DNA of 64,000 nucleotides. Source: an uncultured virus (IMG/VR IMGVR_UViG_3300007516_000009) (Duplodnaviria > Heunggongvirae > Uroviricota > Caudoviricetes). Shown here piece after piece: positions 2,516 to 64,000 of the stretch; positions within the stretch are counted from its first letter, which is position 1, and each line of letters starts with the position of its first letter. The notes under the pieces are model-generated. The model was not told the origin of the DNA and ran no database searches. It was given only the letters and a program-made list of their open reading frames with translations. Made by a program: the position numbers and the translations under genes. The stretch is taken from the IMG/VR virus record IMGVR_UViG_3300007516_000009; one strand, written 5' to 3'.

Positions 2516-3109
2516 TTATATCGTTTTGATCTTATGTCTGTCGATGATTTTAATCGACTCTGGATGATATGCTAAGAAAACATCATGACGTTTCAGTCCC
2601 ATATTAATACCGCCATTATAACGCAACCCATCATAGCCGTTTCTAATTAATATAGCTCTCGTTTTTGCAGTGGTTATCCCGCCGCGAGAAAGACCTTTAA
2701 ATACTTGTTCTCCTGTTAATACTTTTTTGCCGTCCTTCAGTGATGAAAGAACGGCAAATGTATCCACGCCATATGAAAGAAGACTAGCACCACGAGCGAA
2801 ACTATCGACATCATCACCAATTAATTTAGTTAAATCTTTTCCCGTGAACTTATGGTCAACATCAAAAATATTTTTGAGTCTAAGCATTACCTCATATAGA
2901 ACTGGTTCGCCGGTTTTTTTTGCCATACCATTAGCATAGTTTATACCGACTTCTCTATCAGTAGTGAAGTATGCTATTCCACCGCCATAAAAATCATTTG
3001 GAATTCTGGCTTTTTTAGCATCAAATTTACTAAAAAACGAATTCGACCCATGATAGGCGGTACCAGAGAACTTTTCTTCTGTGATGAATTTTCCGAATGA
3101 AATTAGCAT
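2516..3109 (-). CDS. ADP-ribosyltransferase-like (ART-PolyVal-type) protein with capsid-targeting-like N-terminus
   Basis: YHGS...F..FD, G.YFT, YA, YEV.L and GYDG motifs; N-terminus MLISFGKFITEE; late promoter at 3128-3135. Confidence 0.6.
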   Translation of the reverse strand: MLISFGKFITEEKFSGTAYHGSNSFFSKFDAKKARIPNDFYGGGIAYFTTDREVGINYANGMAKKTGEPVLYEVMLRLKNIFDVDHKFTGKDLTKLIGDDVDSFARGASLLSYGVDTFAVLSSLKDGKKVLTGEQVFKGLSRGGITTAKTRAILIRNGYDGLRYNGGINMGLKRHDVFLAYHPESIKIIDRHKIKTI

Positions 3110-3130: not shown

Positions 3131-3550
3131 TTATATGCTAAGGTTTTCCACTTTAATATCGGCACTAAGAAGATAATCGATCCCGCTGGTATCTCGATAA
3201 TCTTCTGCATAATAAACTTCCGTGATACCAGAAACTAAAAGCAACTTAGCACAATCAAGACACGGCATCATAGTGATAAAAACTATTGCGCCTTCGCTCG
3301 ACTCGTTGCTTCGGGAAAGTTTTCCAATCGCATTAGCTTCGGCGTGAATGACTTCGTTATGAGTTATCAGACCGAGTTGAGTTTTATCTTCACAATTATT
3401 ATCTGCGCCGGGCCGAGTTCCATTATACCCAGTCGAAATAACTCGGCCATTTTTAACAACTATACAACCAACACCGCCGCGGCGTGCAGTACTACATTCT
3501 GCCCAATTATATGCGGTCTTCATAAATGCTATTTCATGTTTTCGTTTCAT
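3131..3550 (-). CDS. cd: dCMP deaminase
   Basis: GYNG, HAEANAI and PCLDCAK zinc-deaminase motifs. Confidence 0.92.
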   Translation of the reverse strand: MKRKHEIAFMKTAYNWAECSTARRGGVGCIVVKNGRVISTGYNGTRPGADNNCEDKTQLGLITHNEVIHAEANAIGKLSRSNESSEGAIVFITMMPCLDCAKLLLVSGITEVYYAEDYRDTSGIDYLLSADIKVENLSI

Positions 3551-15596: not shown

Positions 15597-15988
15597 TTTT
15601 TCAAACCACCCTTCTCAAGCTTTTTCTTTATTGTTTCGATTTGTTGAGAAGACAAAATATCCATGATCTGATTTGCTTTTTCATAACTATAGCCGAAATA
15701 CGTGCTAACAGCTTCGAGATCATCACCATGCTCTGTCTTAGCCCATCGTGCAAAGCGCTTTTTGGGCCTAACAATATTTATATAAAAAGAGAAACACAAC
15801 TTTTTCTCGAGTTGCGGGTTAGCATTCATTTCGTTTGCTACAAAAATAGTATCTGGAAAATACGAAAACTGGCGGTTAACCATGAATGCGTTATACCCCT
15901 TCTCGGCTAACTCATCATTATCCGTCCCAGTCATAATATCTTTGCCAGTGTTTATAGCATTCACGTAATCATAAAAATTAACAGTCAT
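15593..15988 (-). CDS. 62: Clamp loader small subunit gp62
   Basis: Y..FMVNR..S...DT...ANEMN, KRF..W.K, YFGYS; synteny with gp44 and regA. Confidence 0.92.
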   Translation of the reverse strand: MTVNFYDYVNAINTGKDIMTGTDNDELAEKGYNAFMVNRQFSYFPDTIFVANEMNANPQLEKKLCFSFYINIVRPKKRFARWAKTEHGDDLEAVSTYFGYSYEKANQIMDILSSQQIETIKKKLEKGGLKK

Positions 15989-16647
15989 AATAGCGACACT
16001 ACTTTCTGAAATTCCTCAAGCGAATAATCATATACGTTAGAAAATTCTGCCGTTTTAAACTCACTAATTCCGCAATTCACCCGCGCAAAAACAGTAAACG
16101 GATGTTTTTTATATATCCGTTCGTGCTCGGAATACCATTCAGCTAATGGATAGGAATTCTCGTAAAGTGCTGTATTCAGATAGATATTATCGCTATTTTC
16201 TATGTCGAAACCAGTCATAAACACGAGACTATTATCCTGTGCAGCAATGTCGAGCGAAGTTAGTCCGGTTGACATCGGTGGTGCTGTCGGTAAGGCGATA
16301 ACTCGGTCTACTGGGTAAAGCCAGGTTACATATAGATTGTTATCTGCGCCAGAAATAATACAGCGATCCGAGTGCCGTGTGTTTTCAATGACCAGTGAGT
16401 GCCCAAACATACTTTTAATCGATTCATATTCAGCAGCTTCTTGAATGTCCCATTGGGTGAAATAGCAGATATTTCTAATAGGATAACCGGAACTGTAAAT
16501 TTCGTGTTGCATTTTAACATCGACCGCAGTAAGAAAGTCAACCGTCATATCCCGATAAATTGCATTACACCCATATGTGCTTAACTTTGATGAGTGAGGA
16601 ACCGTAAGCCTGGATTTCCCGTTACCCAATACTATTGCAGCACTCAT
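15985..16647 (-). CDS. Glycosyltransferase-like protein (GT29/MptE-like fold)
   Basis: VLGNGKSR, YGCNAIYRD..VD.L.AVD, STG, GFD motifs. Confidence 0.5.
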   Translation of the reverse strand: MSAAIVLGNGKSRLTVPHSSKLSTYGCNAIYRDMTVDFLTAVDVKMQHEIYSSGYPIRNICYFTQWDIQEAAEYESIKSMFGHSLVIENTRHSDRCIISGADNNLYVTWLYPVDRVIALPTAPPMSTGLTSLDIAAQDNSLVFMTGFDIENSDNIYLNTALYENSYPLAEWYSEHERIYKKHPFTVFARVNCGISEFKTAEFSNVYDYSLEEFQKVVSLL

Positions 16648-17701: not shown

Positions 17702-18355
17702 TCATCGAGGGCTTTCAGTTGCGATGAAATACTGAAGCGATCCAGTTTCATTTGTAAAATGACTAATACCCTTTGATGAGATATTTACGTTGTAGTTGCT
17801 TGGCATTACCTTTAGGTTTTCGGCTTTAAATACAAGATCAAACGTCTGGTCAGTTTCACCCACAATGACTTGATATTTATTGGATGTTGCGTTCTTCACG
17901 TCGCCGACTTCAAGAACAATTTCACCAGATCGACCAGCGACTGACCAATTAGGCGCTTGAAAAACGCTTGCTGCTTGCATTGTAGCTTTGAGCGTCTCAA
18001 TCGAAAGCCTGAATTCGACAACCACATCGGGTAGACTGATAGCTTTTGCTGGTGCTGCGAGCACCATATTCTTATCTGCAAAGAAATACTTGATAGAAGA
18101 TTTGCCAGTAGCAATAGTCACGTGCCTGTCGCTAAACGTAAAATCCGGATTTTCAAAAAGCGATACTGCGGATAGAAACTGGTTCAAATCATAGATCGCA
18201 AACTCAGATTCAAACGAATCATCGACTTCAGCAATTGCCATAATCGTTTTCTGGGGTGAAATGGTGCGGAGTACGTTTCCAACATTGATGAGAATAGATG
18301 GGTTAATTGATGTGAAGCTCTTAAGTACTGCGAGCGTGTTGGGCGAAATTTTCAT
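17702..18355 (-). CDS. 45: Sliding clamp gp45
   Basis: MKIS..TL.VLKSF.SINPS, FAIYDLNQFL, ENLK, YFIATE. Confidence 0.95.
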   Translation of the reverse strand: MKISPNTLAVLKSFTSINPSILINVGNVLRTISPQKTIMAIAEVDDSFESEFAIYDLNQFLSAVSLFENPDFTFSDRHVTIATGKSSIKYFFADKNMVLAAPAKAISLPDVVVEFRLSIETLKATMQAASVFQAPNWSVAGRSGEIVLEVGDVKNATSNKYQVIVGETDQTFDLVFKAENLKVMPSNYNVNISSKGISHFTNETGSLQYFIATESPR

Positions 18356-18416: not shown

Positions 18417-19259
18417 CTACTTTAGTTTCTCAGACTTATCTGCTGTTGCAGATGCCCCAATCTGTGCCAAATCGGATAGACTTCCACCGAACGTATATGA
18501 TCCCATATGCGTTAAGCGCATCCACGGGCACATCCAAACCTTGATCTGGGCTTTACGTGCCCACTGGCAAAACATATAGTCCTCCGAAAGATATCGGCGA
18601 GACTCAGGATCAATAACACAATCGAAATATGCCATGATTTCTCTCGATCCATCAAAGTGTGCTGTCCGCACGTGGTCTGGAAGATATTTGAACTCAGGAT
18701 ATGCCTTTTCATATGCAACGAATGCTTTTCGTTGGATCATCATAAATCCAGTTCCGCCCTCAAGCACTTCTGTCGGCTCACTTAAAGAAATTTGAGTCTG
18801 CCCATGTGCTGGATTAAATACATAATCTCCAACAAAATTCTGTAGATTGTTAGGGTTTTCATCTGCATAGCCTTTATCAACAGCGCGCTTGATCTTTTCC
18901 CATGCAATTGTCTTTTTCGGATACGGCCCACACATAATATCTTTATTTGATTCCGGATCTGCGAGCGCCGCAAGCGCAAGCACGTCATTTGGGTTAAAAC
19001 CGATATCTGCGTCAATAAACATCAGATGAGTAAATTGTTCGTTGCGAAGAAACTCATCTACGCAATAATTACGGGCGCGCGTAATAAGTGACTCATTAAA
19101 CAGATAAAAGAACTCAATCTCAATCCCATTCTGTGAGCAAAGTTTAGATAGATCTGCCGTTGATTTAGTATATTGACCTGAGCACATTCCCCCAAACATC
19201 GGAGTAGCTACAAAAATCTTTCGCTTTTGTAACTCAGTTCTGTCAATTGAAATCTCCAT
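18417..19259 (-). CDS. GT-A fold glycosyltransferase-like protein
   Basis: IFVATPMFGG, NESLITRARN, HLMFIDADIGF (DxD), GTGFMMI, YLSEDY.FC. Confidence 0.8.
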   Translation of the reverse strand: MEISIDRTELQKRKIFVATPMFGGMCSGQYTKSTADLSKLCSQNGIEIEFFYLFNESLITRARNYCVDEFLRNEQFTHLMFIDADIGFNPNDVLALAALADPESNKDIMCGPYPKKTIAWEKIKRAVDKGYADENPNNLQNFVGDYVFNPAHGQTQISLSEPTEVLEGGTGFMMIQRKAFVAYEKAYPEFKYLPDHVRTAHFDGSREIMAYFDCVIDPESRRYLSEDYMFCQWARKAQIKVWMCPWMRLTHMGSYTFGGSLSDLAQIGASATADKSEKLK

Positions 19260-19543
19260 TATTTTCTACCCTTAAAATTATTGTCGTGATTATGAAGTGC
19301 GATAATCGCATAGTGGATAACTTTAAGAAGATCTTTTCTCCACGCATCACTATCACTTTTGCGGCCATAACGCTGCGCATACTTCATAATATTTCCAATA
19401 CAGAAACCATCGCCGTGGCCGGCATCTAGAATGAATTCCGTTGCTTGATATTTATTCTGAGCATAGTGCTCTTTATATGTATTATTAATATATGTTGTGA
19501 TTTCTGCGAGTATTTCTTCTTCATTATATTTATAGTTAATCAT
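19259..19543 (-). CDS. DUF3310/SaV-like protein
   Basis: HY, GFCIGNIMKYAQRYGRK, DLLKVIHY motifs. Confidence 0.8.
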   Translation of the reverse strand: MINYKYNEEEILAEITTYINNTYKEHYAQNKYQATEFILDAGHGDGFCIGNIMKYAQRYGRKSDSDAWRKDLLKVIHYAIIALHNHDNNFKGRK

Positions 19544-20409
19544 TATTGTGCCTTGCCAAAAGTTTGTTTATGTTTCGGGCTCCAAATATCATAACAACTC
19601 GAACATAAAGATTTAATAGTTGATTTAATCGGAGTAGCGCAGCCGCAGCACTCTAATCCCGCCATCATGGGCTCATATACCTCGGTCGGTTGTTCTACAT
19701 CGCGGATCCAACTACCTGCTTGTTCCCAGCCGGACCCATTAAATTTTGGTGAGATGATTGGTTTAAATCCATGATCATATATTTCTTCTAATAAGAGATT
19801 TGATTTTGCAACCCAATCGCCTTTGGCTGCTGGAATTTTATGAAAGTCAACGACAATCGCGCGCATAGATGGACTTATTAGCTTGCCGCTATACTGATAT
19901 TCAGCGCCCTCTACATCTATTTTAACAACTGTTGCGTGTTTAATAGCATCGGTATATTGTACAGCCTTAACATTCTCAGTTTTTGCTTTTGATTTCTGTC
20001 CCAAAATTATACTGTTAGTGACTCCAATTCCTTTTGAAATATTGATATCCACAGATTCGATATCAACTCCAACTACCGCAGCATGAATTACTTCCATGTT
20101 TGGCAGTTTGGTAAGAGAAAGAATTTCGTGTGTTTTACGGGTCGGCTCATACGCAGTTACTTTTTTGACCGGAAATCTGGCACACCGAATCGCAAAGGTT
20201 CCTACATAAGCACCGATATCAACCACAACATCTGTATGTCTGAGTTCAATTGAGTTGCATTCTTTCATTGGCGTAATAAATGGGTTTTTCTCATTATCCC
20301 GGTAAATTACGTTGTGCCCGCCAGGGACGTTTCCACCTGGAATATGTTTATAAAAAATTTCTGGGTCTGGGTCTGTATAGGTTTTGCCGAAAAAACTTGC
20401 AATATTCAC
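19543..20409 (-). CDS. FkbM-family SAM-dependent methyltransferase with C-terminal Cys cluster
   Basis: VVDIGAYVG, AYEP, KIDVEGAE; CCGC...CSSC near the C-terminus. Confidence 0.82.
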   Translation of the reverse strand: MNIASFFGKTYTDPDPEIFYKHIPGGNVPGGHNVIYRDNEKNPFITPMKECNSIELRHTDVVVDIGAYVGTFAIRCARFPVKKVTAYEPTRKTHEILSLTKLPNMEVIHAAVVGVDIESVDINISKGIGVTNSIILGQKSKAKTENVKAVQYTDAIKHATVVKIDVEGAEYQYSGKLISPSMRAIVVDFHKIPAAKGDWVAKSNLLLEEIYDHGFKPIISPKFNGSGWEQAGSWIRDVEQPTEVYEPMMAGLECCGCATPIKSTIKSLCSSCYDIWSPKHKQTFGKAQ

Positions 20410-21374
20410 CGTGTTGCTCCATAATAAGATTTATACCAATTAACAAATTTCTCAACACCCTCGGGGATAGAAACCCGAGGTTTCCAGCCAAGTGCTTGAA
20501 GCTTAGTTGTATCTGACCAAGTTTCAAGTGTATCCGCCGGGTGAGGACCAACCATATTTTTTTTGATTTCTAGGCCGAAATTCTTTTCAATCTCAGCGAT
20601 GAAATCCATGAGATGAACTTGTTCACCGCGGCCTATATTATATATCTCGTCAAGCGGTGTGTTATCATCAATAAGTTTCTTTTCTAGAATAAGCAAAATT
20701 CCCTCAACGATATCAGTCACATACGTAAAATCTCGTTTCATATTCCCATAGTTAAAAACATCAATTGTTTTTCCAGAAACAGCCGCTTCAGAAAAACCAA
20801 ACAGTGCCATGTCTGGTCGGCCATATGGCCCATAAACAGTAAAAAATCGTAACCCAATTGTTTGCGAAATTGGTGATGTTATAAATTGACATTCGTTAGT
20901 GCGTTTTGTATATCCATATGGATTTAATTGATGCCCAGTAGGCGAGTCCTCTTTCCACGGTAATGGATTTCCAGCCATTACACATGATGTTGATGCGTAA
21001 ATAACTTTTCTAATTCCCAATGAAGTAACAGTATCAATTAAATTTTGAGTTGCGAGAATGTTATTCTTAATATACTCCATGGCATGATCGTATGAATGAC
21101 GAACCCCAGCATATGCAGCCAGATGAATTATCACCTCTGGGGTTATTTCACTAATAACAGATTGACAGTTGGCCGGGTCTGCCAAGTCACAGAAATGAAT
21201 TTTTATGTTTTTTGCGGCAAGTATATTTTCCCGACGTTTTTTCAACTGGGGATCATAATACGAATTGAAGTTGTCCAACCCAACAACATCATGGCCAACA
21301 CTATATAGGTTTGATGCGAGATGATATCCGATGAATCCTGCCGCGCCAGTAATTAGAACCCGTGTCATTACCAA
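20406..21374 (-). CDS. NAD-dependent epimerase, UDP-glucuronate 4-epimerase-like
   Basis: ITGAAGFIG, DNFNSYYDPQLK, HLAAYAGVRHS, YGYTK, LRFFTVYGPYGRPDMA, RDFTYV.DI. Confidence 0.9.
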   Translation of the reverse strand: MVMTRVLITGAAGFIGYHLASNLYSVGHDVVGLDNFNSYYDPQLKKRRENILAAKNIKIHFCDLADPANCQSVISEITPEVIIHLAAYAGVRHSYDHAMEYIKNNILATQNLIDTVTSLGIRKVIYASTSCVMAGNPLPWKEDSPTGHQLNPYGYTKRTNECQFITSPISQTIGLRFFTVYGPYGRPDMALFGFSEAAVSGKTIDVFNYGNMKRDFTYVTDIVEGILLILEKKLIDDNTPLDEIYNIGRGEQVHLMDFIAEIEKNFGLEIKKNMVGPHPADTLETWSDTTKLQALGWKPRVSIPEGVEKFVNWYKSYYGATR

Positions 21375-22279
21375 CTTCCTCTTCCCGACGGATAAACTGC
21401 TTTATTGAAATCATAATCTATGAATTGTTCTTCCGTACCGTATTTTCTAGCAAGTTTCATGCCGAATTCGTTTGCTTTATTCTTGATTATAACGTCTGGT
21501 CGTAGGAGCATTTTGTTATTTCTGAACCCGGAAATATCTACGTGGTGGTGTGTTCTGCCATATCGTTCGACGAGTGTTACAACATCCGGGTGCATGTCAA
21601 CAAGCATTTTTGATTTTTTATATGAAGCATCTTCTTCATAATTATTATAGACCTCAGTGGTGTTTCCTCCCCTGACTGAGCCCGTTCTAGCCTTGCCGCA
21701 AAGAAAAGAATAAAATAGCATCGTACAGGCACCGTCTTTAAGGACGCGGATAGAAAGATCAACGTCTTCATTATAACGGCCGCGCCACCTATGCGGACAA
21801 GAATTTTGAATAAGAAAACACGACATAATACGGGTATTCAAAATGTACGGTGGGTACGGATAATCGTCTATACAGAAAAATTTATACTGAAAACCAGCCA
21901 ACTGAACATTTTGGAACCTATCGACAAAATCCTCTGCTGCTCGAAACACTGCGGTCCCTGTTTCCACGCGATATCTTTTATTATTATGAAAGCGCCAAAA
22001 CTCAAAAATGTTATCGTCGAGCAGCCAATGCCGATCAAACCCACTCGATAATGAGTGCTCCCAACACCAATTGCGGGCGGGGCCGGATCCCTTTCCATGA
22101 TTGCTAAACGGTAGCAACAAGATTTTTGTTGGATCAATAACAGCAGCATATGCGTCAAATTCCTGTGGCTCGATCACAATATAATACGGAACGCACATTC
22201 GCTCAAGCGCTTTACTCGTATACCGCGTATCTGCTCGGCCCTTTGAAATTATATAAATTGGATATCGCGTATTATTCAT
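21368..22279 (-). CDS. TET-associated/GREB1-like glycosyltransferase (TAGT)
   Basis: YPIYIISKGRA, GSGPARNWCWEHS, HWLLDDNI, WRGRYNEDVDLS.RVLK, GGNT; start moved to MNNTRYP (22279). Confidence 0.8.
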   Translation of the reverse strand: MNNTRYPIYIISKGRADTRYTSKALERMCVPYYIVIEPQEFDAYAAVIDPTKILLLPFSNHGKGSGPARNWCWEHSLSSGFDRHWLLDDNIFEFWRFHNNKRYRVETGTAVFRAAEDFVDRFQNVQLAGFQYKFFCIDDYPYPPYILNTRIMSCFLIQNSCPHRWRGRYNEDVDLSIRVLKDGACTMLFYSFLCGKARTGSVRGGNTTEVYNNYEEDASYKKSKMLVDMHPDVVTLVERYGRTHHHVDISGFRNNKMLLRPDVIIKNKANEFGMKLARKYGTEEQFIDYDFNKAVYPSGRGSW

Positions 22280-22646
22280 CTTCCACCCACTTATTAGTGA
22301 TATTTTCTTCGCGAGATTTCTCTGGCCAAAAAAACCCACGAGTTTTCGGAGTAAATACTTGATTTAGAAGTTTAGCAAAAGCATGATAATCTTCTTCATT
22401 TCGTAAACTCACTATTATTTGTTTGTATGGCGCAAGATCAGTACTCGCATATGCTGGCATCCCACCAGCATGCCATTGCCGGTATGGGTTGGTCCATTCT
22501 TCTTGAAGTTTTTCTTCTTCTGATAAACCGAAAAAATCCGTAAGTGTACTTATCTGTTCAACTTCAGGAGCATGGTCGGAGCGGTCGGAGCGGTCGTCGT
22601 AGTCAATTGAAGTATCGGGTAAGTTCTCGGTCATCAGCGTCTCCAT
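22272..22646 (-). CDS. Small acidic partner protein upstream of the TAGT gene
   Basis: W..GGMPAY...IIV..RNEEDY..F...L.Q..T.KT..W.P pattern; overlaps both neighbours. Confidence 0.65.
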   Translation of the reverse strand: METLMTENLPDTSIDYDDRSDRSDHAPEVEQISTLTDFFGLSEEEKLQEEWTNPYRQWHAGGMPAYASTDLAPYKQIIVSLRNEEDYHAFAKLLNQVFTPKTRGFFWPEKSREENITNKWVEDE

Positions 22647-23086
22647 TCTGAATTTGAATACTCTTTGAATTGATTGATTATATACTCATCGGTGATACAA
22701 GTCAATAGCTCACAAGAGCTAACATCATATAAGTGCATCGTGCGTCCATCTTTTGTTTTTCTAATTCTGGTGATTCTATTCTCTGGAAGATACTTCCAAA
22801 TATTGACTTTGTTTCCATTATTTGAGCTTGGAGTTTCTACAAAAATAAGCAGATCAACGGCATTACATTTCGCAATTTGGTTTGCGTTTACCGAAAATGC
22901 CCGCTCGACATGAAACATCTGTTGTGTTTTCACCTCGCATGTGAGTTCACCAATAGACATATCTTTCTTTCTATCATATAAATCAAGCGACTCATCAACC
23001 TGAAACCCCTGATCTCTATAGTATTTAGCCACCAATTTTTCACCGAGTGCGCCACTTTGTACTTTTTTCATTTCAATATCACTCAT
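22634..23086 (-). CDS. PD-(D/E)xK nuclease-like hypothetical protein
   Basis: GALGE helix, KD...CEVKT motif. Confidence 0.5.
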   Translation of the reverse strand: MSDIEMKKVQSGALGEKLVAKYYRDQGFQVDESLDLYDRKKDMSIGELTCEVKTQQMFHVERAFSVNANQIAKCNAVDLLIFVETPSSNNGNKVNIWKYLPENRITRIRKTKDGRTMHLYDVSSCELLTCITDEYIINQFKEYSNSEWRR

Positions 23087-23471
23087 TAGATGTCTCCGGA
23101 CTATAAAGAACAGCCCCGAGATCGGGCGAAGAATAGTTTGGTCCCTTGAGAACTTTCCCGTCCTCTCTATAAAGTGGGTTACCGTCCGACCCCAATTTAC
23201 TCATATTCGATCTATGTACCTCTTTAAAGCACAGGTCGATATCAAGCCCATAACACAATGCGGCACCATAAACAACATAAAGAATATCAGTGAGCGCATC
23301 GGCGATCTCGACGATGTCTTTATTGAAAATGCCGGTTTTCAACTCATCCACTTCTTCTTCAATAAGTGATAGTCGAAGCTTTTGTTCATCTGTTTCCAGA
23401 AGACCGGGTGTTTTGCGATCTGGCAAATCGAACGTGGCGTGGAATTCTCGAACCATTTCAAAATTCGTCAT
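23079..23471 (-). CDS. MazG-like/phosphoribosyl-ATP pyrophosphohydrolase-family NTP pyrophosphatase
   Basis: LIEEEVDEL, EIADALTDILYVVYG, EVHRSNMSK, REDGKVLKGPNY. Confidence 0.9.
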   Translation of the reverse strand: MTNFEMVREFHATFDLPDRKTPGLLETDEQKLRLSLIEEEVDELKTGIFNKDIVEIADALTDILYVVYGAALCYGLDIDLCFKEVHRSNMSKLGSDGNPLYREDGKVLKGPNYSSPDLGAVLYSPETSNE

Positions 23472-24091
23472 TAACTATTCTCCTCGAAAACCAATTTTTG
23501 TAAACGCAAAATATCCGCGGCGACATCATGAATAGAATTGTGTTTTTCGAATTTAGTATCCCATTCTTTTAACGTGAAACAATTCATATTGCGCTTGAAA
23601 TTAAATTTGGCATCAATATAAGTTCGTGTATCGCGGACATTCCAATGCTTAAGTGCTTTATTAAACTCGTCGATGCGACCAACGTCTGAACACATTCGAT
23701 ACATAATGATCGGATCAAACGTATTAGATCGCGACCACCAATATTCAACTTGGTTATTCTCAGCTAAATACTTGAGTACATTATCAATGAAAGCTGAAAC
23801 TCTGATATCGGTTGGTTCTGGTTTTAGCATAATTTTTGCTAGTGAACTGTCCTGACTTCTCCACCAAGCAAGTGTGTCAGGATCGATTTTATATCCAAAC
23901 TCAGTGACCTGATGAGTGACCTCTAGTTTATCTTTTATAATAACAGTCTCGACCAATTCTTCGAACGTGTATGGATTGGTTGTGAATCTATCAGCATTAA
24001 ATACTGCATATGAGCATTCTAAAACCGGAAACCCACGTATCAAATCGGTCCCGAGTGTCTCGAAGTCGAATATAAAATGTTTGCCCTTCAC
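23471..24091 (-). CDS. dexA: DexA-like 3'-5' exonuclease
   Basis: FIFDFETLG, TL.WW..Q, WSRSN.FD, RDTRTYID, HNSIHDVAADI. Confidence 0.85.
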   Translation of the reverse strand: MKGKHFIFDFETLGTDLIRGFPVLECSYAVFNADRFTTNPYTFEELVETVIIKDKLEVTHQVTEFGYKIDPDTLAWWRSQDSSLAKIMLKPEPTDIRVSAFIDNVLKYLAENNQVEYWWSRSNTFDPIIMYRMCSDVGRIDEFNKALKHWNVRDTRTYIDAKFNFKRNMNCFTLKEWDTKFEKHNSIHDVAADILRLQKLVFEENS

Positions 24092-24906: not shown

Positions 24907-26622
24907 TCATGCTGCAATCCTCGAGAAATTCTTGTGTTTCTCAAATTTGATAATAGCGCGGAATTTATCTTGTAGAAGATCTCCTTTGTGACTGATAACG
25001 AAAACATTATTGTTCTTTCCAAGTTCATTGAGCAACTTCAAGAATTCATCCGATCCATTTGCATCAAGTGACGCATCGAATACTTCGTCGAGCAGTAACA
25101 GATTTGTGTTAGTTGAATTTTTCATTTTAGCAATAGCCCGCCAAGTCATGAGTAGAGCCAAATCAATTCGCATCTTCTCACCCTCGCTAAACGACGGATA
25201 ACTAAACTCATCTCGATGTCGAGACTTAATTACCCCATCAAAGGTTTCGGTTAACTCGAAGTGGACAAAGAACTCCATCGATGCAAGATATTTATTGATT
25301 AGTTTATTCATCACTGGAATATACTGCTTTATGATCTGGGTTTTAATGCCCTTATCTTTGAGTAAATCAGCCGCGGTGTCGAATATGTGTTTCTCTTTTA
25401 ACAATTCTTCTTTATGTTCTTCGTACTTACTAATTACGCTTCTGAGTTTGCTTATCTTGGCCGTTTCAGCATCAAGATCGCCAATATTACCGGTTTCAGC
25501 TATCATATTTTTTTGTAGTTTAATGCTGTAACTATTGAGAGACGAAACCTGGACAACTTCTAAGTGCATCGCTTGTTGTGTTTGCTGAATTGATTTTTTC
25601 GTCGTTTCAATATCATTGAGCCGGTGCGACCACTTATTAAGTTGTTCTGCGAGTTTAGAATACCCATCCTCTATTTCGCCGATTTTGTTATATTTACACT
25701 CGATGCTGGTGTGTTTCGTTTCGTTTGTTATGACTTGATTACATGTTGGACAATTATTATTGTTTTCGTAAAAGAAAACTTCCTTTTTAAGGGTTTCTAT
25801 TTTATCTGTTAGTTTTGATTTAATTAGTTGAATATCACGGATTTTCTTTTGTACCGCTGCGTCGTCTTTTATGTGTTCTTGAAGTATACTTATATCTTCT
25901 TCATATTCAGAAACAGTCACAGTAAGCTTATTGATGTTTGCTTGCGTAAGATCGAGTTCGGTTTGAATAGTTTCTATCCTCTTTTGATTTGAAATTTTTA
26001 TTTCTTCTACATACTGTGTGTGTACCTTGAGTTTCTCCCCATCTACTTCAATTTTATAGTTCATATCGCTAAGAGTTTCTCTATTTGTTTGTAGTTTTTC
26101 TTTAAGTAGAATATTCATTGATGTGAATATTTTAAGATCAAGTAGATCCTCAATTATCTCTCGGCGTTGTTGCGCGCTAAGTTGCATAAATGGAATAAAC
26201 GTAGATGATCCGAGTACGACTATTTGGGTAAATGAGGAGAAGTTAAGCTTTAGAATATTCTTCTCCAGATACTCTTGATAGTCCTTAGCCGCCGCCGCCT
26301 GCTCAACTAACTTTCCGTTTACGTGAATATCAAAAATGTTAGGTTTTAGCCCACGAATAATTCTGTATTTTATTTTACCGATACTAAACTCGACTTCGAC
26401 CAACAGCCCCTTTTGATTAATTGAGTTAATTAGCTGGGGTTTATTGATTTTTCTGAACGGTTTACCAAACAACACGAAACATAAAGCATCTAAAATAGTT
26501 GACTTGCCCGCCCCGTTTTCACCGATCATCAGTGTCGTTGCATTTTTACGAAGATTGATTTCTGTCCATACGTCCCCGGTAGACAATAGGTTTTTCCATT
26601 TTATACTGTTAAATAAAAGAAT
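24907..26622 (-). CDS. 46: Recombination nuclease ATPase subunit gp46 (Rad50/SbcC-like), probable ATT start
   Basis: GENGAGKST, CPTC hook, FSEGEKMRIDLALL, LDEVFD, ISHK; conserved F..I.WKN.LSTG N-terminus extends to ATT at 26622. Confidence 0.95.
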   Translation of the reverse strand: MLLFNSIKWKNLLSTGDVWTEINLRKNATTLMIGENGAGKSTILDALCFVLFGKPFRKINKPQLINSINQKGLLVEVEFSIGKIKYRIIRGLKPNIFDIHVNGKLVEQAAAAKDYQEYLEKNILKLNFSSFTQIVVLGSSTFIPFMQLSAQQRREIIEDLLDLKIFTSMNILLKEKLQTNRETLSDMNYKIEVDGEKLKVHTQYVEEIKISNQKRIETIQTELDLTQANINKLTVTVSEYEEDISILQEHIKDDAAVQKKIRDIQLIKSKLTDKIETLKKEVFFYENNNNCPTCNQVITNETKHTSIECKYNKIGEIEDGYSKLAEQLNKWSHRLNDIETTKKSIQQTQQAMHLEVVQVSSLNSYSIKLQKNMIAETGNIGDLDAETAKISKLRSVISKYEEHKEELLKEKHIFDTAADLLKDKGIKTQIIKQYIPVMNKLINKYLASMEFFVHFELTETFDGVIKSRHRDEFSYPSFSEGEKMRIDLALLMTWRAIAKMKNSTNTNLLLLDEVFDASLDANGSDEFLKLLNELGKNNNVFVISHKGDLLQDKFRAIIKFEKHKNFSRIAA

Positions 26623-30602: not shown

Positions 30603-30657
30603 TGTCATTCAAAGGCGGCAAGGCCTATTATAACCAGTTTGGATATAAAGTCAATAG
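30603..30657 (-). repeat. Copy C of a dispersed promoter element (uvsY promoter)
   Basis: CTATTGACTTTATATCCAAACTGGTTATAATAGGCCTTGCCGCCTTTGAATGACA; near-identical to 42829-42902 and 61206-61279. Confidence 0.9.
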
Positions 30658-61910: not shown

Positions 61911-62183
61911 TTAGCTGATCCTTAACTTGCTGCCAGACTTGATGATAGACTCGTTCTTTCACGGATTTTATGTAGTTGATGATAGACTTGATCACAGACC
62001 TGATGCCAGACTTGACGCCGGACTTGATACCGGACTTGATCACAGACCTGAGGCCAGATCTCAGGCCAGACTTGATTCCGGACTTGACACTCGACTTGAT
62101 GTCAGACTTGATCCCAGACCTGATGCTGGACTTTATTATGGACATGATTCCAGATATATAATTCGATCTTTAACGGATTTCAT
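61897..62183 (-). pseudogene. Disrupted QVxx modules
   Basis: ATG 62183 loses frame in a TA run; TGA at 62102-62104 in the QV frame; junction at 61971 has ATA for ATG and GAA for TAA. Confidence 0.65.
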
Positions 62184-62192
62184 TGACTTAGT

Positions 62193-62447
62193 CTATAGTT
62201 CTTCATTTACTTCTACAAACAACTCAGTCATTTGCTCTGTAGTAGAAAAATGAGCAATAACAACCAACAAAGCGTCGCAGTATTTCAGATCATAGGCCAA
62301 GTCTTCTTTCGTATGATCTTCCGTCGCGGGTTGCTTCTCAATGCGCGCAATAAGCTTCTTGGTACTCTTCAAAGAATCAATCAACGACAAGCGAGTAATA
62401 ATATCCGCTGTTTCGTAATCCAGCCGAATTCCTTCTAAATAGATCAT
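62193..62447 (-). CDS. Hypothetical protein embedded in the array
   Basis: GGAGG RBS; LDYETAD.IT...L pattern; no QV repeats. Confidence 0.7.
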   Translation of the reverse strand: MIYLEGIRLDYETADIITRLSLIDSLKSTKKLIARIEKQPATEDHTKEDLAYDLKYCDALLVVIAHFSTTEQMTELFVEVNEEL

Positions 62448-62570
62448 AGTATGTTCCTCCAGTTAGGTTTGGTTTATTTATTTGTCCATACTCTAAAGAT
62501 ATCACGCCCGATCAGTTTATAAATCCTTTGTTTTTATTGAATAATACAGCTCATATTTAACGGATTTCGT

Positions 62571-62894
62571 CTAGTTGCTCCAGCTTTGCTGCCAGACTCG
62601 AGGCCGGACTTGACGATGGACTCGATCATAGACCTGATGCGTGACTCGAATCCTGACTTGACGCTCGACTTTATTATCGACTTGATGCAAGACCTGAGGC
62701 CGAACTTGATTATAGACTTGTTCCAAGACTCGCTGCTTAACTCGATGCCGAACTTGATTATAGACTGAACCCCGAACTTGACACTGGACTTGATTATAGA
62801 CTTGATCAAAGACTTGATCCCGGACTCGATCATAGACTTGACGCCGAGCTTGACCCAAGACTTGAAGCACGACCTGCTTTTTAACGGATTTCAT
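62571..62894 (-). CDS. Long QVxx-repeat protein (107 aa), frameshifted just before its canonical end
   Basis: MKSVKKQVVLQV...; EQLDEIR* is present in a neighbouring frame ending near 62557. Confidence 0.65.
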   Translation of the reverse strand: MKSVKKQVVLQVLGQARRQVYDRVRDQVFDQVYNQVQCQVRGSVYNQVRHRVKQRVLEQVYNQVRPQVLHQVDNKVERQVRIRVTHQVYDRVHRQVRPRVWQQSWSN

Positions 62895-63051
62895 TTAGTT
62901 GCTCCTGGACCTGATTATAGACTTGATCACAGACTTGATCACAGACTTGACGCCAGACTTGATGACGGACTTGATCCCGGACTTGATCCCGCATTTGACG
63001 CTGGACTTGATGACGGACTTGATCATAGACTTGCTTTTTAACGGATTTCAT
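62881..63051 (-). CDS. QVxx-repeat mini-protein (56 aa)
   Basis: MKSVKKQVYDQVRHQVQRQMRDQVRDQVRHQVWRQVCDQVCDQVYNQVQEQLNEIR*. Confidence 0.7.
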   Translation of the reverse strand: MKSVKKQVYDQVRHQVQRQMRDQVRDQVRHQVWRQVCDQVCDQVYNQVQEQLNEIR

Positions 63052-63208
63052 GTAGTTGCTCCAAGACTCGATCCATGACTCGATATGTGGCTTGGTGCCA
63101 GACTCGATGCCAGATTTGATTAAAGACTTGATTTCCAGAGTCAACTTCGACTTGTCACGCGACTTTATCTAAGACTTGATTCCGGATTTGCTCTTTAACG
63201 GATTTCAT
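63038..63208 (-). pseudogene. QVxx module with one in-frame TGA
   Basis: MKSVKEQIRNQVLDKVA*QVEVDSGNQVFNQIWHRVWHQATYRVMDRVLEQLHEIR*; TGA at 63155-63157. Confidence 0.65.
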
Positions 63209-63323
63209 TCTCGACTCGATTACGGATTTCATTTCCAGACTGGGCCCAGTAGGACAAGCCGGTTCGCGAACCGGCTTGTTATCTTACTCTCCTGTTTCAG
63301 TAAGAAAGTGCGTGTTCGGCGGC

Positions 63324-63581
63324 CTATACGGCGACGCCGCCCTGGGTCCATGCCTGGAACAGGCCTACCGGCGCCATGCCTTCGGTCCCATCCTCGTGCG
63401 TCCAGCCGGCGGGCGCCTCATAGACCGTGAACCCTCGGTCCATGAAGAAGTCCACCTCCTCGAAGGGGTCGACCTCTGCGGGCGCGACCAGGTGGCATGC
63501 GCGACTCGGTGATGTGGCGCGGACCGAGCTGATGACGCCGGTGGCGAAGTCGATCAGTACGTAGGTCTTGTTGGTATCCAT
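63324..63581 (-). CDS. GC-rich early hypothetical protein
   Basis: Behind an early promoter and TGAAACAGGAGAC leader. Confidence 0.65.
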   Translation of the reverse strand: MDTNKTYVLIDFATGVISSVRATSPSRACHLVAPAEVDPFEEVDFFMDRGFTVYEAPAGWTHEDGTEGMAPVGLFQAWTQGGVAV

Positions 63582-63586
63582 AATCT

Positions 63587-63635
63587 GTCTCCTGTTTCAA
63601 TATAGTTACTATATCACACTCAGAAACGATGTTAA
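63587..63635 (-). promoter_or_regulatory. Early promoter plus leader cassette
   Basis: TTAACA-16 bp-TATAGT then TTGAAACAGGAGAC; shares ACATCGTTTC...TGTGATATA with 14104-14152. Confidence 0.65.
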
Positions 63636-63666
63636 CAATTATTTTTAAAATCTTTTATAAAGCGTA

Positions 63667-64000
63667 TTAGCCCGCAACCGCAAATATTTCTGCGATGCTA
63701 TCATATAAGTCGAATTGCCCGCAAACTAACTCATGTTTACCCGCTTTAGGAAAGTCAACTATTTTAGAATAGGGCGATTTCCGCGCGTATATCACAACAC
63801 CGGCAGTCTTATATAGTTTATTCCATACATATCGGCCGCCAGGCGATTGGCTGTCACCCGCCTTGAGTGTGATATCTAGCTTAGTCAATATGAACTTATA
63901 GAGCTTAATAGCTAGGTTGTCGCCGCGGAACCGACTATCAACTTTTAGCACATTAATGCACCACACATTACGCGCTTTTGATAGTCCCACTAAAGCAACA
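63667..64000 (-). CDS. GNAT-fold acetyltransferase-like protein, C-terminal part
   Basis: V...FRG..LA.KLY acetyl-CoA-binding-like motif and DSQSPGGR.VW; the frame runs off the window. Confidence 0.5.
   Translation of the reverse strand, partial: VALVGLSKARNVWCINVLKVDSRFRGDNLAIKLYKFILTKLDITLKAGDSQSPGGRYVWNKLYKTAGVVIYARKSPYSKIVDFPKAGKHELVCGQFDLYDSIAEIFAVAG

Follow-up and report, generated by a model that had tools for sequence, protein, structure and literature searches.

Phage gene clusters that pair a GT-A glycosyltransferase (GT) with an epimerase put hexuronic acid (HexA) on 5-hydroxymethylcytosine (5hmC), and two of them gave HexA-modified 5-methylcytosine (5mC) of 433 amu, according to the available sections of a preprint (Pyle et al., bioRxiv 10.1101/2023.12.21.572611). 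In the same sections, about 65% of the contigs mined for phage DNA-type GTs are said to lack a neighbouring acceptor-making enzyme and to have been set aside. Here we describe a GT–epimerase locus in a 64,000-nucleotide (nt) stretch of DNA (the window) from an uncultured freshwater T4-like phage (IMG/VR record IMGVR_UViG_3300007516_000009); the window makes up the first 64 kb of a linear contig of 123,411 bp, which CheckV rates as 68% complete. An initial annotation had proposed that the nine minus-strand open reading frames (ORFs) at 18417–24091 form a DNA-hypermodification operon, adding an epimerised, possibly methylated uronic acid to a base. We find that the functional core is narrower (19543–22705) and comprises a promoter-like site and the genes for a small adaptor, a TAGT-type GT, an epimerase-like enzyme and an FkbM-family methyltransferase. 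Our proposal, which we hold with confidence evenly divided for and against, is that the core carries out clamp-tethered, post-replicative transfer of galacturonate to limited sites on DNA, followed by methylation of the sugar.

The TAGT/JGT-type GT-A enzyme (303 amino acids, aa; 21368–22279, minus strand) matches PF20691 (E 1.6e-46; 159.3 bits against a cut-off of 27.5) and phrog_842 (E 2e-49). Its start is probably the ATG at 22279; the listed GTG start at 22339 falls inside the adaptor gene, and its stop overlaps the epimerase start at 21368. Residues R69, D88, D89, E171 and D172 are invariant across 29 aligned sequences, and N90 stands in the place of the third Asp of the R...DD(D)...ED motif. 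TAGTs of phages Aeh1, PTm1, Kuja, POP12, GD1 and 1.124.O, which are adaptor fusions annotated by similarity only, are 42–49% identical to the window TAGT, while P12024L gp27 and PhiJL001 gp22 are only 24–27% identical. In a quick tree of 69 rows with long basal branches, from which we use this clade only, the window TAGT falls in a 13-row T4-like clade (SH-aLRT 99) nested among FkbM-linked TAGTs. A PDB sequence search gave no significant match for the TAGT, for the FkbM enzyme or for a 280-aa ORF next to gp45.

That the FkbM-family, S-adenosylmethionine (SAM)-dependent methyltransferase (19543–20409, minus strand) works in the same pathway is indicated by fusions and by co-occurrence. Nine of the 131 homologues examined are fused to a TAGT and five to an adaptor domain; 252 homologues are of similar length and 12 are longer, eight of the longer ones carrying PF20691. 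Across loci drawn from three collections, a TAGT lies within the fetched flank, mostly abutting, at 46 of 62 loci of this FkbM subfamily compared to 3 of 151 generic FkbM loci. Restricting the count to loci whose flanks are full gives 31/36 and 2/97, and after dereplication at 80% identity a TAGT is still found near the subfamily at 33 of 46 loci. The enzyme scores 58.6 bits against TIGR01444 (cut-off 37.7) and 18.9 bits against PF05050, which is below the cut-off of 22.7. Its sequence includes a KIDVEG motif, none of the cysteines in the methyltransferase core is invariant, and its structural model (pLDDT 90) has a class I methyltransferase fold. A C-terminal four-cysteine tail occurs in 116 of 120 close homologues and is absent from members of 212–222 aa, suggesting that it is accessory. 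Judged by sequence, this is a distinct, mostly viral FkbM subfamily dedicated to TAGTs. A TAGT scan of viral contigs returned 47 loci, one being the same sequence; the other 46 include 35 that are T4-like, which were not dereplicated. None of these 35 carries FkbM, most having a TAGT 60–83% identical to that of the window, and a scan for the two closest FkbM homologues placed neither on a T4-like contig. Since these relatives run a TAGT, in most of them a closely similar one, without FkbM, we consider the methyltransferase to be a tailoring step rather than the maker of the acceptor.

The adaptor (124 aa; 22272–22646, minus strand) has no Pfam match, and its family, for which there is no Pfam name, matched 3,255 clusters at E ≤ 0.001. 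Its N-terminal part resembles a paralogue (c0) and its C-terminal part a partner domain; in most relatives there are two paralogous small genes (HHalign probability 96). In six cultured phages, every one of the seven TAGT ORFs is an adaptor fusion, with Aeh1, GD1 and Vibrio 1.124.O carrying the minimal form. Among 49 long adaptor relatives, 18 carry a TAGT, 18 carry ParB_N and two carry a TAGT plus DNA_pol_A. The last two, P0179 (1204 aa) and P0181 (1085 aa), are adaptor-TAGT-DNA polymerase A fusions with TAGTs 33–34% identical, over its length, to that of the window. In the module phages G035 and G039 the genes run ParB-adaptor, FkbM, TAGT, (epimerase), terminase, the unit standing directly before the terminase genes. 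There is no ParB in the window phage. Here, the C-terminus of gp43 reads TIEGFFS, and similar peptides occur within the adaptor (TLTDFFG, from residue 34) and in the N-terminal part of FkbM (NIASFFG). The pattern [STN][ILM]xxFF[GSA], chosen after seeing the sequences, has four matches in 38,718 proteome residues (gp43 C-terminus, gp45 interior, adaptor and FkbM), with an expectation of 0.56 overall and 0.02 in the cluster, and a similar motif forms the end of each of the 18 distinct c0 paralogues. The adaptor and FkbM thus have a reasonable probability of docking, via LxxFF motifs, on the gp45 sliding clamp encoded next to the nine ORFs (17702–18355, minus strand; PF09116, E 3.5e-11), much as the ParB and polymerase fusions may tether the enzymes elsewhere.

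The predicted UDP-glucuronate 4-epimerase, a short-chain dehydrogenase/reductase (SDR) of 320 aa (20406–21368, minus strand; Epimerase family 3e-50), has its best PDB matches in 5U4Q (E 6e-77) and 6ZL6 (E 5e-43). Its Y151, K155, T127, S128 and R184 align with Y149, K153, T126, S127 and R185 of 6ZL6. From these matching residue numbers we take 6ZL6 to be the Bacillus cereus UDP-glucuronate 4-epimerase, in which Tyr149 acts as catalytic base and the carboxylate is bound by Arg185 (partial texts of PMC7984243 and PMC12338863). The second Ser of 6ZL6 (S128) is C129 in the window epimerase and in all 15 close relatives from the T4-like set. A G-rich GxxGxxG motif at residue 7 and a YxxxK motif are present, and the epimerase motifs are kept in all 15 close relatives; no NCBIfam equivalog cut-off is reached. 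The enzyme is predicted to make UDP-galacturonate (UDP-GalA) from UDP-glucuronate (UDP-GlcA).

In the mechanism that we propose, the epimerase would convert UDP-GlcA to UDP-GalA, the TAGT would pass the sugar to newly made phage DNA at limited sites, and FkbM would then methylate the transferred sugar. DNA is the likely substrate of the unit, because the adaptor is fused to TAGT, ParB and DNA polymerase A, because the clamp-like motifs are present, and because Stenotrophomonas phage DLP6 (L006:2496-6786) has a TAGT, a nucleotidyltransferase and a TET/JBP gene between gp46 and gp45. This content of DLP6 also suggests that the gp46–gp45 slot is an exchangeable site for DNA-modification genes. 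(The TET gene of DLP6 is annotated as 'SNF2 DNA repair protein'.) We lean slightly towards UDP-GalA as the donor, derived from host or phage UDP-GlcA; the latter could be supplied by the host or by a 421-aa phage nucleotide-sugar dehydrogenase. For the methyl group, placement on a hydroxyl or the carboxyl of the sugar after transfer seems to us an even call. FkbM enzymes add methyl groups to sugars in glycans of the cell surface and of secondary metabolites, and it is from the family that sugar methylation is suggested here. The structural matches do not separate sugar from RNA methyltransferases. As to the acceptor, we tentatively suggest a group that ordinary DNA already carries, for instance an exocyclic amine, and a hydroxylated pyrimidine made by an unseen gene stands about level with it. 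More speculatively still, a widespread and self-sufficient module of adaptor, TAGT and FkbM may glycosylate an unmodified base directly, with no need of a hydroxymethyl handle, on the clamp (gp45 or ParB) or on the polymerase, yielding in this phage an undescribed methylated galacturonosyl base. The initial annotation implied a novel modification; GT–epimerase pairs that put HexA on 5hmC have, however, already been published (Pyle et al., in the available sections), and the chemistry of the first step is thus known.

Several observations weigh against this proposal. The initial annotation noted that the window has no TET or hydroxymethylase gene, and extending the search has not changed the picture: a six-frame search of the whole 68%-complete 123-kb contig gave no match for TET/JBP, ThyA or C5-methyltransferase, in line with Pfam scans that covered most ORFs. 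ThyA was found in none of 48 related records, seven of them at least 90% complete, in a search whose controls were positive in 10 of 14 genomes. The corresponding TET search recovered its positive control, P12024L, and returned nothing from 12 further genomes, of which four are complete small module phages and six are cultured carriers. GTs without a neighbouring 5mYOX or ThyS gene are judged less likely to act on DNA in the sections of Pyle et al. that we draw on. In addition, the window genome is depleted of the palindromes CGATCG (6 observed, 28.8 expected) and GTCGAC (8 versus 26), and complete module phages of GTAC (1 versus 68 in G027) or GATC (1 versus 88 in G035 and 1 versus 91 in G039). 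Because module genomes still avoid such restriction-type palindromes, blanket protection is not evident and modification of all of one base is unlikely; therefore, either the modification is site-limited or the target is not DNA. The phage dehydrogenase (106,083–107,348) belongs to a separate sugar cluster some 85 kb distant, and its identity to the cassette-type enzyme is only 21–28%. An epimerase is found at only 4 of 36 well-flanked FkbM-subfamily loci and a dehydrogenase at none, which makes uronate plus methyl a rare combination. Lastly, GREB1, a TAGT relative, is reported to glycosylate protein (partial text of PMC7968844), and the fold search with the FkbM model ties the RNA methyltransferases RumA, fibrillarin and TYW2 with the FkbM protein 2PY6.

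The alternative that survives best is that the acceptor gene is hidden: the sugar would go onto 5hmC, 5-hydroxymethyluracil (5hmU) or 5-hydroxycytosine made by a TET- or ThyA-type enzyme that is divergent or encoded in the missing third of the genome. We regard this as possible but on the unlikely side; if true, the chemistry would be the known HexA-pyrimidine plus a methyl group. The contig being 68% complete leaves room for such a gene, and so does the observation that only 83% of the contigs found with phage-5mYOX profiles carry a PF12851 annotation (partial text of PMC13229309), meaning that PF12851 misses some phage 5mYOXs and that our TET negatives are limited to that extent. Divergent ThyA-like genes do occur in adaptor-TAGT carriers, as a single match in Kuja (E 3e-62) and as an extra match in PTm1 (E 1.5e-10), a dCMP deaminase, which Pyle et al. 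tie to such pathways in the sections available, is found in 9 of the 35 related cassettes, and a TET gene shares the DLP6 slot with a TAGT. Against a hidden gene stand the ThyA and TET searches given above and an all-against-all comparison of six genomes, in which only the adaptor and the TAGT/FkbM are common to all; moreover, pathways of this kind are usually clustered (bioRxiv 10.1101/2023.12.21.572611, same sections). Among 128 proteins neighbouring module loci there are two C5-methyltransferases, no TET and no ThyA, and Pfam scans of 45/46, 52/61, 32/32 and 36/36 ORFs (110–900 aa) in the four complete small genomes gave no acceptor enzyme. TET was likewise not found in the 48 related records, in a search without a positive control that is weak alone. 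Other acceptor routes have been described (partial texts of PMC13326640 and PMC8256090).

Two further points concern thymidylate synthases. Vibrio phage Kuja, an ackermannvirus, has two tandem adaptor-TAGT fusions and a single ThyA-like gene (L292:4557-7269) and is a candidate for sugar on 5hmU. The only thymidylate synthase in the window contig is ThyX (G000:C1:115940-116638), in whose conserved motifs Ala and Gln replace the Glu and Arg of 24 of 27 distinct relatives, with no link to the cassette; the idea that ThyX is a concealed hydroxymethylase was rejected, since the related cassette-bearing phage G004 has the usual ThyX residues.

A second alternative, which we consider improbable, is that the unit glycosylates and methylates a protein or a surface glycan (a virion protein, a DNA-bound host protein or lipopolysaccharide) instead of DNA. 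In its favour are the lack of an acceptor gene in our searches, the continued avoidance of restriction sites, the precedent of GREB1 as a reported protein O-GlcNAc (O-linked N-acetylglucosamine) transferase (PMC7968844, in part), the usual glycan substrates of FkbM enzymes and a second sugar cluster of the phage at 106–112 kb. These points are countered by the adaptor fusions to DNA polymerase A and ParB, by the clamp-like motifs, by where the unit lies, which is within the replication module in this phage and immediately ahead of the terminase genes in G035 and G039, and by the combination of TET and TAGT in the DLP6 slot.

Similarly improbable in our view is that FkbM does not methylate a sugar oxygen but instead works on the base itself, or passes on a different portion of SAM, such as the aminocarboxypropyl group used by TYW2. 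The top Foldseek matches of the FkbM model are RNA methyltransferases (RumA, E 5e-6; RlmCD; fibrillarin; TYW2, E 9e-5), homologues give weak matches to PF02475 (TRM5-TYW2), and the four-cysteine tail could bind nucleic acid. The structural rows for RumA, fibrillarin, TYW2 and 2PY6 are nevertheless tied (Z 12–14), the sequence passes the FkbM cut-off with its KIDVEG motif and without an invariant core cysteine, and relatives use the same TAGT without FkbM. Finally, although dexA, MazG, dCMP deaminase and other genes come and go in this slot, the notion that the core genes too are unrelated passengers of the replication module is very improbable, as adaptor, TAGT and FkbM are fused in every pairwise combination and TAGTs are enriched near FkbM; it is contradicted for these three, and may hold for DUF3310, the 280-aa GT-A, dexA and MazG.

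Returning to clamp-tethered galacturonate transfer, the limits of the unit proposed to carry it out emerge from comparison with the 35 T4-like relatives. Fifteen of them have a close epimerase and another 13 a different SDR, so that an SDR stands beside the TAGT in 28. The slot filled by FkbM here is that of a dehydrogenase or deaminase in relatives: a short UDP-glucose dehydrogenase is found in 11 of the 35 and the dCMP deaminase in nine. Upstream of the core lie the genes for a DexA-like 3'-5' exonuclease (23471–24091, minus strand; phrog_255, E 3e-25; PF16473, E 6e-13) and a MazG-like pyrophosphohydrolase (23079–23471, minus strand; phrog_671, E 1e-41; PRA-PH/MazG, 2e-17). With nine and three occurrences among the relatives, respectively, dexA and MazG are variable neighbours outside the core. 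A frequent upstream neighbour (12 of 35) is a 150-aa ORF (22634–23086, minus strand) with a PD-(D/E)xK-like motif. Downstream are a DUF3310 protein (19259–19543, minus strand; PF11753, E 2e-9), a conserved neighbour present in 16 relatives, and the 280-aa GT-A-like protein (18417–19259, minus strand), present in 26. The latter occurs in 62 phage records, including phiM12, Cr30, DLP6 and Synechococcus ACG-2014f, and lies next to or near gp45 in phiM12 and DLP6, both of which have no close relative of the window TAGT; it is thus an older gene beside gp45 and not specific to the cassette. Because dexA and MazG come and go and the GT-A occurs without a close TAGT relative, we restrict the core to adaptor, TAGT, epimerase and FkbM.

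The gene layout read by the initial annotation, nine overlapping ORFs between gp46 and gp45, agrees with the coordinates: each ORF overlaps the next by 1–13 nt, and the block is flanked by gp45 and by a peptide deformylase gene that separates it from gp46 (24907–26586). Family matches uphold its labels of DexA-like, MazG-like, TAGT, epimerase, FkbM and DUF3310. For two others the outcome differs. A GT-A identity of the 280-aa ORF is plausible, since FIDAD occurs as a motif in this protein (phrog_1574, of unknown function) and 32% of the members of the Atlas cluster that it matches are Anp1, whereas Pfam, PHROG and NCBIfam gave no match for the 150-aa ORF, whose putative nuclease role comes from a motif seen by eye. 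A GenBank homologue of the 280-aa ORF is labelled 'dpG-synthase-like', which raised the idea of a guanine modification; a literature search found nothing supporting it, and we take the label to be a generic GT2 'DPG synthase' name. As for the proposed operon itself, DNA as the likely target, a uronate donor and FkbM in the same pathway stand, and the span was too wide.

A sigma70-type promoter-like site (TTGACT-17-TATAAT; 22677–22705, minus strand), matching the consensus at 11 of 12 positions, lies about 30 nt upstream of the adaptor gene and is the probable start of the core unit. Sites of this type number 27 in the genome, compared to 1–6 in each of 10 shuffles. A separate, near-identical 48-nt promoter-like element occurs in four copies and both orientations, at window positions 30654 (minus), 42838 (plus) and 61215 (plus) and at genome position 117738 (minus). 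The contig continues for 18 kb and 99 kb to either side of the block. The stretch is present in three freshwater metagenome runs: a public contig that may come from the source sample itself covers it end to end with one difference, and the remaining two runs yield TAGT, epimerase and FkbM pieces at 99% identity, making a chimera unlikely.

Elsewhere in the phage we note the following. The second sugar cluster, outside the window (G000:C1:106083-112136; L003:2583-8636), encodes the nucleotide-sugar dehydrogenase, a class I methyltransferase, YqeY, a radical SAM protein and three GT-like ORFs without Pfam or NCBIfam matches; it possibly serves virion or surface glycan synthesis. A GT-B glycosyltransferase (PF00534) is encoded near an RNase H gene (G000:C1:87905-88864) and is 46% identical to a gene of G004, a phage that also has CsgG, curlin-repeat, FecR and CHASE2-cyclase genes (L283:908-6919). 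Within the window, an ADP-ribosyltransferase-like ORF (2516–3109; PF18760, E 4e-8) sits beside a dCMP deaminase-like gene (3131–3550). An ORF between gp44 and gp62 (15985–16647; phrog_30607) shares a similar N-terminal GNGxSR motif with one at G000:C1:83710-84324, and several short low-complexity ORFs rich in DQV/QVR repeats lie at 61927–64000 and continue to about 66300.

The module forms a coherent part of the orphan GTs that earlier mining set aside, with an adaptor family of about 3,255 clusters and a dedicated methyltransferase. The TAGT was reportedly defined by Iyer et al. in 2013; we found no description of a TAGT-FkbM-adaptor module in the literature searched, which excluded supplements and that paper. 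In a figure legend of PMC13229309, O-methyltransferases are listed among the domains near 5mYOX genes. To earlier knowledge we add the fusions, a co-occurrence count with controls, complete genomes in which no acceptor enzymes were found, and the palindrome test. If the proposal is true, it would mean a new DNA modification and perhaps also a means of attaching sugar labels to unmodified DNA. That restriction sites continue to be avoided points to a function other than blanket anti-restriction.

Set beside known systems, the locus is closest to the subclass II clusters of Pyle et al. (as far as the available sections describe them), with which it shares a JGT-like GT-A beside an epimerase and the R...DD...ED residues. 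It differs in that their defining neighbouring C5-methyltransferase and 5mYOX were not found in the window contig, and in having Asn for the third Asp, the adaptor, the clamp-like motif and FkbM. The TET/JBP-associated PF20691 enzymes (T2/T6 beta-glucosyl-HMC-alpha-glucosyltransferase, P12024L gp27 and PhiJL001 gp22) belong to the same family; unlike the window, P12024L has an adjacent TET and PhiJL001 a dUMP-hydroxymethylase-like gene. For the pre-replicative route of the T-even phages to glycosylated hydroxymethylcytosine, hydroxycytosine or hydroxymethyluracil, searches of the incomplete contig and of the 48 related records returned no ThyA-type hydroxymethylase or hydroxylase. In the ParB-dependent phage T-dioxygenases (partial text of PMC13229309), a ParB-like protein without a DNA-binding domain serves a DNA-modifying enzyme, and our adaptor is often fused to ParB_N; here the enzyme served would be a glycosyltransferase, and this phage has a gp45-type motif and no ParB. 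The epimerase resembles the B. cereus enzyme (PMC7984243 and PMC12338863, in part) in its aligned Tyr/Lys pair, Thr-Ser and carboxylate-binding Arg, and departs from it in the Cys that replaces the second Ser. The methyltransferase is like the FkbM family (TIGR01444, PF05050) in passing the TIGR01444 cut-off, in its class I fold and in having 2PY6 among its top structural matches, and unlike generic FkbM in its N-terminal VPGGH hairpin, in its optional tail of four cysteines and in the fusion of some homologues to TAGT or adaptor. Lastly, as in gp45 clamp-binding proteins, the adaptor and FkbM carry motifs that resemble the C-terminal peptide of gp43.

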